This document shows, in pieces, positions 58,168 through 61,100 of a stretch of 64,000 bases of DNA. Each line of letters begins with the position of its first letter. Positions within the stretch are counted from its first letter, which is position 1. The DNA is taken from IMG/VR virus record IMGVR_UViG_2651869782_000025; one strand, given 5' to 3'. The stretch is from a virus (lineage: Duplodnaviria > Heunggongvirae > Uroviricota > Caudoviricetes). Made by a program: the position numbers.

Positions 58168-61100
58168 TGATGTTTTGAAAACGGTCACTGACCGCTTTTG
58201 TCTCTATAGCAATGCTCGAAAAGGTCGCCAGAACGGGCGGCAGTATGTATTAAGCGCGGTAAAGACTATGCTTGAAAGCAAGGAAACTCAGGAAGGTTTA
58301 CGCCTTGGTGAGCTTTTCGGCTATTACGGTCACGGTCGCCGACAGCTGACCGGCAAACTGGAAGTACCAGAAACCAGCGTGATCATGGTGGAAGGCCGCC
58401 CGGTCGTAATCGACAATGTTCCAGCGTGCCGAACAGTGGCTATATCTGTTGACGACAACGGTATCGTTACCCATACACAGGAAATTCTTAACACAGAGCC
58501 GGGTAAAATTGTCGCCGCGATGATCGAAAGTCGAGCTGGTGGCTGGAGCTGGGCCACTGGCGGGCACGAGTCCGGGAAAATCGCTGTAACCACCAGCTTC
58601 CATGGTGTGGATTATGTGACAACGCCGAACTATATCAGTCTGGATCATCCTGCCAGCGCCGGAATGTTTGAAAGCGCGGATTCTAAATCCTTACTGGCAG
58701 AGTCCCTGGCGGCGCATGGGTACTCCGACGAGTCAGTGCAGGCCGTTATATCCCATTACGGCAAAATGGCTGAACTGGAAATGATGGTGGAGGCGACGGA
58801 GCGTACGGCAGAACTGGAAACTGCACTACTCGAAAGCCAGGGCCGCCACCTCGAAGCAATGGCCAAGATCGCGGATGCCGAAGCGCGAATCGCTTTGCTG
58901 GAGGAAACAGCGGGTATCCGCGACGATGTGCTGGCAGCAATGCAAGACGAACTGGATAACCTCCCGATATTCGTCTCCGCCGCCCAAAAAGACGCATTCC
59001 GCCTCAAAGAACCTGGTGATGCAAAAATCGTTGCCACACTTTTCGAATCTCTGATCAAAGTTGGAGCACGCAACTTGCCTGTCACCAAGAAAATTAAGGA
59101 GGTTCCGCAAGCGGCTAACGTCCAGGCACCGCGTGAGACAAGCATCATCACGTTTAATAATTCAATCAACCCGTTTAATTGACACCCTCCACGCCCTGAC
59201 GGGCGTGGATTCCTGCTACGTTCAGGCTGTCGCCTGAATCATTTCGGTGGGTTCCTGCTTCAACGGGCGGCCTGACTGCACCATCCCTCCACAGGCAAGT
59301 ACGGCGTGCCCCGCCGCTAAAATGTTACGAGCGCCGTTTACATCGGCGTTCGCTGTATATCCACATACCTGGCATCTGAATTTACTTTGTGACAGGCGAT
59401 TTTCTTTCGCGGTATGACCACAGCACGCGCAACGCTGGCTTGTGTACGCTGGCGGCACTGCCAGTACCTGACCGCCATGCCAGAGCTGCTTATACTCAAG
59501 CTGGCGGCGCATTTCATACCAGCCCTGATCCAGTATCGAACGGTTTAAACCTGATTTTGCCCGGACATTGCGACCCGGCTGACTTATCGTACCCGCCGCT
59601 GACTTTGACATGTGTTTAACCTTCAAATCCTCAATGACAATCATTGCGTGGTTTTTGCTGATGATCGTTGTGACTTTATGAAGGTAGTCTCTGCGGATAT
59701 TTGCGATACGGGAGTGCAGTTGCTGTATTTTGCGTTTCTGCTTCTGCCAGTTGTTGCTGAATCTGACCTTGCGGCTTAACTGGCGCTGAAGTCTCGCCAG
59801 CTTTTTCTGGTTTTTCTGGAAACTGTTTACAGGCTCAAAGACTGTGCCATCTGACAGCGTGGCGAGCCTGGCCACGCCAGCATCCAGTCCGACCATTGAT
59901 GCTGAAGGGTGAACAGGAGTGGATACTTCACTTTCTGTCTGAATACTGATGTACCATTTACCGCAGGACTGGCTGACAGTGACATTTTTCACAATCCCCG
60001 TGACCTGCCGGCTGTTACGGTAGCGCATCCAGCCAAGTTTCGGCAGAAAAATACGGCTGTTTTCCTGGTCGAGCTTAACACCCTGCGGGTAGCGGAATGC
60101 ATCATTCTGTCCCCGCTTTTTGAATCGGGGAAAAGCCGCCCGCTTCTGGAAGAAATTTTTGTAGGCCCGCTCAAGGTCTTTCAGTGACTGCTGCAATGGC
60201 TGTGAGGGAGAATCTTTAAGCCATTCGGTTTCAGTGTCTTTTTTCCACTCAACCAACCAGGAAGCCATTTTCGTGTAAGGGATGTATTTATTCCCGGCCT
60301 CATAATTCTCATTCTGAAGTGCCAGTGCACGATTGAAAACGAAACGACAAGCTCCGGCAAAGAGCCTCATTTGACGCTCCTGTTGACCACCGGGTCTTAA
60401 CTGGAATTTAAATGCTTGTAGTCGCTTCATCCCACTATTTTAAACAAAAACAGTTAGGTGGAAAACCACGCCTTATATCCCCGTCCTTCAGGGCGGGGAT
60501 ATAAGGCGCACCGGATAACCCATTTAGGTTACATATTTTCGCCTTTAAAAAAAAGAGGTTATTAGATCCATTTATGTATTTATTAAACAGCAAATGCTCT
60601 AATAAATTTGTATTTTTAAGTCGCAAATGCTATCTTTTCGCATCATATTGACCTTTTAATCGTTCAGGCTTATAGTTCCGCCGTCGTAGCAAATTCTGCG
60701 ACCGGGTTTAGCAGCCTGAATGTTAGTGCGGACAACCGCAGATATCCGATATTGCGGTATTTTTGTGTCCGTAAAACCGCGTTACGCCCAAATTATGGTG
60801 GGGCGTGATGGGGAGGCTTCGGCCTGCTGGTTTCACTAACGCCAGTCTGCTAACCCCGTCACGTCCTGCCACCTGTTTAGCAGCGGGTAGCAGGTTGTTA
60901 AACCTGTTAGTGAGGCCGTAACTATGGTTAATGCCAATCCTTGCGCACGCCCAGAATTCATCTGGCGTTTCTATTCCTGTAAAAAACACCACTATCACTT
61001 CGTTATCGCAGCAACTGAAGACGAAGCACGCTCTCAATTGCCTGATGGCCCCTGCATTTTTACTGCCCGTTTTTCTACTGACTCGCGCAATTCACTTAGT

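Follow-up and report, generated by a model that had tools for sequence, protein, structure and literature searches.

The virus record IMGVR_UViG_2651869782_000025 (Caudoviricetes) was analysed as a single stretch of 64,000 nucleotides, called the window here, and its replicon is a P1-like phage-plasmid. Judged from its sequence, the 1336 bp at window positions 59179-60514 (minus strand) are a non-autonomous insertion sequence (IS) of the IS200/IS605 family that has no tnpA and is a derivative of E. coli IS609. The explanation that best joins the evidence, and one we consider quite probable, is that this IS609-type element has an apparently competent TnpB and a predicted guide RNA (ωRNA), and that a deletion by recombination between two copies of the element would have brought it to its present place between the genes pro and immI. 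Both the element type and the protein are already known and annotated, and nothing here is new in kind.

Identity and ends of the element

The ends were placed by comparing the empty site of classical P1 with the occupied site of plasmid pE2865-1, and with the ends of IS609 in E. coli K-12. The P1 site, located at the overlap of pro and lydE, reads ...CCGTTTAA followed directly by ATAACCACC..., and the point between CCGTTTAA and ATAACC is exactly where the element sits in pE2865-1, with no target duplication. In the tnpB sense the layout is a flank of ...GGTTAT, then CCGGTGCGCC... at the left end (LE), tnpB, and ...GGTGTCAA at the right end (RE), which is followed by TTAAACGG.... Comparison with relatives gives an LE of 84 bp (60431-60514, minus strand). 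Just beyond it, the site comparison places TTAT (60515-60518, minus strand; ATAA on the plus strand), the predicted transposon-associated motif (TAM) and left cleavage-site tetranucleotide, which is also where the element meets the region upstream of immI at a deletion junction (60514/60515). The right-end tip reads GGCGTGG AGGGTG TCAA, and its terminal TCAA (59179-59182, minus strand), the right cleavage site according to the site comparison and the rule known from IS608, lies 10 nt 3′ of the foot of the right-end hairpin. The first-pass annotation had recognised the element at 59185-60510, and the exact ends are now refined to 59179 and 60514. It also described the right end as abutting the stop codon of pro, which is correct as far as it goes; more precisely, the terminal TTGA (plus strand) provides that stop codon (59180-59182), and the element terminus changes the final residue of Pro from K to N relative to P1.

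We collected 80 related loci, one genome per species. Similarity drops sharply after ...GGAGGATGTCAA (...GTCAA) in 38 of these loci, which come from many Enterobacterales, and of 37 left ends 35 have TTAT or TTAC on their 5′ side. The last of its four bases covaries with the one that lies 5′ of the LE hairpin foot, with TTAT accompanying GTAAAA in 18 loci and TTAC accompanying GTAAAG in nine. There is one true exception, and three further loci, in which a 1-nt deletion in the A-run shifts the register and sets T with C, are unscorable. The cleavage sites of IS608 from Helicobacter pylori, the mechanistic model of IS200/IS605 transposition, are recognised through base pairing to a guide tetranucleotide located 5′ of the hairpin foot (PMC3201880), and the ends, the sharp boundary and the T/A and C/G covariation together point to the same mechanism and rule in the IS609 group. 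Both groups have imperfect subterminal hairpins, insert 3′ of a tetranucleotide and have their right TCAA cleavage site 10 nt 3′ of the hairpin; IS608 uses TTAC with the guide AAAG, whereas the group studied here uses TTAT or TTAC, with AAAA paired to TTAT (PMC3201880). The distance from left cleavage point to hairpin foot differs, being quoted as 19 nt for IS608 and measuring 16 nt here. The IS200/IS605 end structure that was first annotated therefore stands: tnpB is present, hairpins lie near both ends, terminal inverted repeats are absent, insertion is 3′ of a tetranucleotide without duplication, and the right end is TCAA.

The element also shares its ends with the named IS609 and has at least about 90% DNA identity to it. 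IS609 is annotated in E. coli K-12 MG1655 at 1503161-1504908 and comprises the tnpA pseudogene yncK and insQ/b1432, a "putative RNA-guided DNA endonuclease". The K-12 copy starts with CCGGTGCGCC after TTTAT and ends in ...GATGTCAA, encodes a 402-aa TnpB with 94% protein identity to that of the window, is 93.4% identical in DNA over tnpB and the right end, and shares the right-end hairpin and the ωRNA region. The window copy differs in having 22 bp in place of a tnpA segment of about 435 bp, in its left-end hairpin, which is perfected and loop-inverted, and in the zinc finger of TnpB, as described below.

The TnpB protein

The gene tnpB (insQ-like; 59222-60430, minus strand) encodes a protein of 402 aa, and the RuvC-like region and C-terminal zinc finger attributed to it from the first inspection are both borne out by profile and structure matches. 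It matches Pfam OrfB_IS605 (2e-32), Cas12f1-like_TNB (2.5e-24) and HTH_OrfB_IS605 (8e-14), the NCBIfam model guided_TnpB ("RNA-guided endonuclease TnpB family", 1.2e-116) and, over residues 3-376, the ISDra2 TnpB structures 8BF8, 8EXA and 8H1J (7e-52). Residues D191, E278 and D361 of ISDra2 TnpB align with D183, E267 and D363, and both CxxC pairs of the zinc finger (C334/C337 and C353/C356) are kept. Since the catalytic triad and the zinc-finger cysteines are intact, the protein looks nuclease-competent. InsQ of K-12, on the other hand, carries C337Y (QRCAYCGH), where the window and most relatives have the intact QRCACCGH, and it may be that the reference-strain protein is impaired and the plasmid copy intact. 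The window gene is identical in DNA to that of pE2865-1, whose product is in RefSeq as InsQ/TnpB (WP_024222312.1), and across relatives nonsynonymous divergence in tnpB (0.17) is well under synonymous divergence (0.40).

Terminal hairpins and loss of tnpA

The right-end subterminal hairpin (59188-59209, minus strand) was defined by folding and alignment, and is helix 9 of the RNA model presented below, with compensatory changes in six of its nine pairs. Its arms (59188-59196 and 59201-59209) form a perfect 9-bp stem 12 nt past the tnpB stop codon, close to the 15 bp or so first noted for this GC hairpin, and as DNA it has a z-score of −4.2, with none of 200 shuffles folding equally well. The left-end hairpin (60469-60508, no strand assigned) is a perfected palindrome, defined by folding and by comparison with 37 related loci, whose 19-nt arms (60469-60487 and 60490-60508) match at 95% (z = −5.3, 0 of 200 shuffles). 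The perfect 14-bp stem reported upstream of tnpB is indeed its core (GCCTTATATCCCCG/CGGGGATATAAGGC), but the palindrome is an aberrant, loop-inverted form of the imperfect IS609-type hairpin. In canonical relatives the LE and RE hairpins share CCxCGxCCxTCAGGGCGxGG on the tnpB-sense strand, whereas the 10-nt centre of the window hairpin is inverted relative to all 37 related loci. It reads as the canonical left arm and then the reverse complement of that arm plus loop, which yields the perfect stem. The LE guide tetranucleotide has changed from AAAA to ATAT, so that guide pairing with the cleavage site is lost in this copy and kept in relatives. Perfect-stem variants with normal loop orientation occur elsewhere, E. 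coli C, an Erwinia and a Serratia being examples; the exact window variant, searched for as a 41-nt palindrome, is present in 236 E. coli genomes, solely in the opposite orientation relative to tnpB (again, for example, in E. coli C). Because the hairpin loop is inverted and AAAA is lost, the left end, though recognisably IS609-type, is probably crippled for TnpA, and this copy probably immobilised.

As the first-pass annotation stated, tnpA is absent: a tblastn search of the 64-kb window with an intact TnpA of the family gave a best E-value of 1.4. In full-length relatives the space between the left end and tnpB holds an intact 138-aa Y1 TnpA (Pfam Y1_Tnp, 3e-41), divergent from tnpB, and it is this segment of about 435 bp that 22 bp replace in the window element. 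The tnpA/tnpB organisation of IS608 is unlike this divergent arrangement. With no Y1 (HUH) TnpA the element is non-autonomous, and transposition of the window copy would need TnpA in trans.

Predicted ωRNA

A predicted ωRNA scaffold of about 147 nt (59179-59325, minus strand) takes in the right end and the final 34 tnpB codons, and was delimited by covariation and synonymous divergence. For 34 loci of 75-95% DNA identity we aligned the 252 nt that lie upstream of the right-end tip, and RNAalifold gave 51 pairs, with seven helices in the last ~147 nt (59325-59179). These include the right-end hairpin, a stem holding the tnpB stop codon and a long-range helix that pairs 59325-59320 with 59187-59182, immediately before the predicted guide. 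Standard pairs fill 97.5% of the cells in this model and compensatory double changes occur in 11 of the 51 pairs (one such pair is A-U in 18 sequences and G-C in 15, another G-C in 21 and A-U in 12). None of 500 shuffles reached the observed values, and sliding the 3′ partners by 1-3 columns reduced pairing to 37-48%. G-U pairs are common, which fits folding of the tnpB-sense strand. Over the last 34 tnpB codons synonymous divergence is 0.195, compared with 0.401 elsewhere, and nonsynonymous divergence rises there, suggesting nucleotide-level constraint over a weakly constrained protein tail. At the level of aligned sequences, these comparisons show an evolutionarily conserved RNA secondary structure that takes in the final ~100 nt of tnpB together with the right end; this backs the earlier expectation of a guide RNA drawn from the gene's 3′ end and the element's right end.

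A search of 58000-62500 against Rfam at a permissive threshold gave sub-threshold matches on the correct strand and in the correct place to HgcC (19.7 bits), sot0042 (17.7 bits) and RAGATH-18 (28.1 bits); HgcC and sot RNAs come from the tnpB 3′ end (PMC4615843). A described parallel is ISDra2, whose TnpB has the same D/E/D triad and zinc finger and whose ωRNA likewise overlaps both the 3′ end of tnpB and the right end. In that system a pseudoknot links the 3′ end next to the guide with the 5′ scaffold, comparable to our long-range helix, and the C-terminal domain of the protein is poorly conserved (PMC10097598), as is the tail of the IS609-type proteins. The two differ in TAM, which is TTGAT for ISDra2 and TTAT or TTAC for IS609-type elements. 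By analogy with such homologues, we infer that the window TnpB would be accompanied by an ωRNA, would have this TAM specificity and would cleave DNA.

Guide, targets and spread

By its position, the predicted ωRNA guide is TTAAACGGGTTGATTGAATT (59159-59178, minus strand), which is antisense to the last 20 nt of the pro coding sequence upstream of the stop codon that the element supplies. Processing of the tnpB transcript would give an ωRNA made of the ~147-nt scaffold (59325-59179) and a guide of about 16-20 nt from 59178-59159, and TnpB with this ωRNA would cleave DNA in which TTAT is followed by a guide-matching sequence. Such a target would be the vacant pro/lydE junction, as left by excision or as present in a sister or rival P1-like plasmid that has no element; homologous repair with an element-bearing copy as template would then restore the element or let it spread (retention, homing or gene drive). 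This mechanism is treated in the literature (bioRxiv 10.1101/2023.03.14.532601; PMC8612924; PMC11870625), and cutting of the vacant site in plasmids amounts to gene drive (PMC11870625). The guide's own template would be spared because it is preceded by GTCAA rather than TTAT, in keeping with the distinction between TAM and transposon-encoded motif (TEM) (bioRxiv 10.1101/2023.03.14.532601).

A search for the guide segment and its targets had been proposed along with the first-pass annotation, and TTAT-flanked matches are indeed found in empty sites. Those of P1 and pCREC447-2 have GGTTAT and then a match to 19 of the 20 guide positions, with the mismatch at position 9, and the empty site reconstructed with the window variant is matched 100% in two plasmids. 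PLSDB holds about 287 plasmids with an empty pro/lydE site and 41 with the occupied junction, so that about 12% of sites are occupied. Within the window there is no other TAM-flanked target of the guide; a single match with three mismatches is within chance expectation. The element body (59179-60482, 1304 bp) has no differences from the pE2865-1 copy and one from a copy on a Salmonella plasmid, while the adjacent prt and pro (56499-59178) differ by about 1.75%, patchily, in the same comparisons. A near-identical element body amid diverged flanks fits recent spread or homing, but mosaic recombination of the backbone could also produce this pattern.

These data also bear on whether the element does anything at all. 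It could be a stranded IS remnant, with TnpB and ωRNA silent or inactive, that the P1-like plasmid merely carries; we find this unlikely, if still worth taking seriously. Such an inert relic would accord with the absence of tnpA from the window, with the aberrant left-end hairpin and its lost AAAA, and with the finding that all tnpA copies of IS609-type elements inspected in E. coli are pseudogenes, and the Cys-to-Tyr change in the K-12 zinc finger indicates that decay does occur among IS609-type TnpBs. Against it, the tnpB reading frame is intact with every catalytic and zinc-finger residue, nonsynonymous change lies far below synonymous change across relatives, and the RNA structure is kept by compensatory changes. 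The zero to one differences in 1304 bp, despite the divergence of prt and pro, further argue for recent spread over slow decay.

At the other extreme, TnpB and its ωRNA could be an active gene drive or anti-competitor weapon of P1-like phage-plasmids, cutting element-free relatives that enter the same cell and then homing into or excluding them, with the left-end hairpin acting separately as a hotspot of palindrome-driven template switching that immobilises copies and creates large deletions. The predicted guide points permanently at the end of pro, an essential head-processing gene, on its 3′ side and beside TTAT, and would therefore cut element-free P1-like relatives. The identical element in a backbone differing by ~1.75%, the occupancy of ~12% and the related elements at ddrA, immI and prt/pro are compatible with this idea, which we nevertheless regard as speculative and would give little weight.

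Deletion between pro and immI

Window positions 56249-60520 correspond to 11534-15805 of pE2865-1 (NZ_AP018809.1) and 60515-63955 to 41788-45232, and the two replicons are colinear save for one gap. At 60514/60515 the window is missing pE2865-1 15806-41787, about 26 kb with the genes lydE, lyz and ssb, the dar operon, and genes for the tail, baseplate and tail fibres. One edge of the gap coincides exactly with the left end of the element and the other with an ATAAC (TTAT) site lying about 130 bp upstream of the promoter region and C4 RNA of immI. The pro-side junction and the guide are shared with pE2865-1; in plasmids of that type the left end adjoins lydE, while in the window it adjoins the immI upstream region. 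The position between pro and immI was described correctly from the outset, and pro adjoins immI because these ~26 kb are missing exactly at the element's left end. Having lost these lysis, dar and tail genes, the P1-like replicon is probably a defective prophage-plasmid. Two ATAAC sites lie 17 bp apart in the immI-upstream region of pE2865-1 (41769-41786), and the 17 bp between them, ATAACCTCACCTGCCTT, are missing from pCREC447-2, where an element has inserted (locus L003, around 2999); this loss could be either a small polymorphism or an insertion-associated deletion.

In pCREC447-2 and E. albertii plasmid p06-3542 another, 94% identical copy of the element occupies the same immI site in matching orientation. 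All nine differences between the window and pE2865-1 copies fall at 60483-60504, within the left-end hairpin, and positions 59179-60482 are 100% identical. Two diagnostic bases in the hairpin (60483 and 60498) match the immI-type copy and not the pro/lydE type. We propose that recombination or template switching between the pro/lydE copy and a second, directly oriented copy at immI would have produced the ~26-kb deletion, with the event resolved within the left-end hairpin. From these sequence differences, a single palindrome-associated event of this kind is the most likely origin of both the deletion and the re-templated hairpin.

Two other origins of the junction were considered. TnpA supplied in trans might have cut the left end and the distant TTAT upstream of immI and rejoined them, as an LE-adjacent deletion or an aberrant intramolecular transposition, and we see a slim chance of this. 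The junction is precise at TTAT and the left end, and outside the hairpin the element is pro/lydE-type to its end, as a one-copy event predicts. However, this leaves unexplained why the anomaly falls exactly in the left-end hairpin, and the immI-type bases at 60483 and 60498 speak against it. We know of no precedent for TnpA-made adjacent deletions in the IS200/IS605 family. Alternatively, assembly could have collapsed near-identical copies, so that pro, element and immI were joined artificially and no deletion took place. No record has both junctions in a set of 5,426 complete E. coli genomes, 72,556 plasmids and 50,697 phages (best coverage of the junction query 95%), which would fit an artefact, but we think this highly improbable: the two junctions are precise to the base and make biological sense, colinearity with pE2865-1 holds for the rest of the window and the replicon would close as a circle of about 70 kb, allowing for ~6.4 kb of pE2865-1 outside the window, and a collapsed repeat does not explain a re-templated hairpin.

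Points against the proposed reading

Several observations weigh against our preferred explanation of a competent IS609-type element that caused a deletion by two-copy recombination. No inspected plasmid carries both the pro/lydE and immI copies, and the two-copy ancestor is therefore hypothetical: pCREC447-2 has the immI copy alone, pZ1323SSL0064-3 has pro/lydE and ddrA copies in inverted orientation, and p06-3542 has the immI copy and, between prt and pro, a different TnpB. A second copy of pCREC447-2 type would leave only about 14 bp for the crossover. Over the element, no Rfam family reaches its gathering score in the search described above. Most empty sites mismatch the guide at position 9, within the mismatch-sensitive seed, and may be weak targets for the window guide because TAM-proximal mismatches are poorly tolerated by TnpB (PMC10097598). 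Finally, mobility in the host is doubtful, since the inspected E. coli tnpA copies are pseudogenes.

That TnpB has instead been exapted, as a TldR-like RNA-guided transcription factor or for some other host- or phage-domesticated function, deserves practically no credence: TnpB-derived repressors are reported from Enterobacteriaceae mobile elements (bioRxiv 10.64898/2026.09.22.753285), but a TldR-like dead nuclease is excluded here by the intact RuvC triad and the presence of both transposon ends, the TAM context is also kept, and near-identical or related copies occupy unrelated chromosomal and plasmid sites, with related copies in 5,025 of the 5,426 complete E. coli genomes.

Other features of the replicon

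A weak promoter-like sequence (TTTCCA, a 16-nt spacer and TAAAAT; 60437-60464, minus strand) lies upstream of tnpB within the left end, and agrees with consensus at 9 of 12 positions. To the right of the element the control RNAs of immI are intact, with the c4-a1b1 target at 60670-60722 (plus strand, 55.5 bits) and the C4 antisense RNA at 60791-60876 (70 bits); in 58000-62500 these two alone reach the Rfam threshold. Another promoter-like site is found at 60648-60676, and the left end of the element, about 130 bp upstream of it, is transcribed divergently.

The window holds no second copy of the element that could explain the rearrangement, only an old right-end/ωRNA-like relic between the parA start and the repA/incA iterons. 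The relic consists of about 90-150 nt of IS200/IS605 right end and ωRNA (3436-3524, extending to ~3590), is 82% identical to 59179-59268, ends in ...GGAGGATGCCAA, and is accompanied by a faint tblastn trace of the TnpB C-terminus at 3484-3819. Classical P1 has the same relic in its repA-par region (NC_005856.1, 61310-61470). If it is transcribed, its RNA could in principle serve the resident TnpB in trans.

P1-like phage-plasmids carry TnpB elements, of IS609 type or of other types, at recurrent sites, namely pro/lydE, beside ddrA, upstream of the immI c4 region and, with a 376-aa TnpB, between prt and pro. The loci concerned are those of pZ1323SSL0064-3 (L011), E. albertii p06-3542 (L012) and pCREC447-2 (L003), together with phages SJ46 and RCS47. 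Copies at different sites are only about 93-94% identical, implying independent insertions.

Significance

The annotation of this locus is settled as an IS609-type element that has no tnpA, and the puzzling gene order of pro and immI is accounted for. Specific to the window are a 26-kb deletion bounded by the IS and a left-end hairpin that is both inverted and perfected. Of wider use are the predicted ωRNA model for the E. coli IS609 group, backed by covariation, with its predicted TTAT/TTAC TAM, and the clear covariation of cleavage site and guide tetranucleotide across Enterobacterales. P1-like phage-plasmids, with both occupied and empty pro/lydE sites, offer a natural setting in which possible TnpB-driven homing or plasmid gene drive could be studied.

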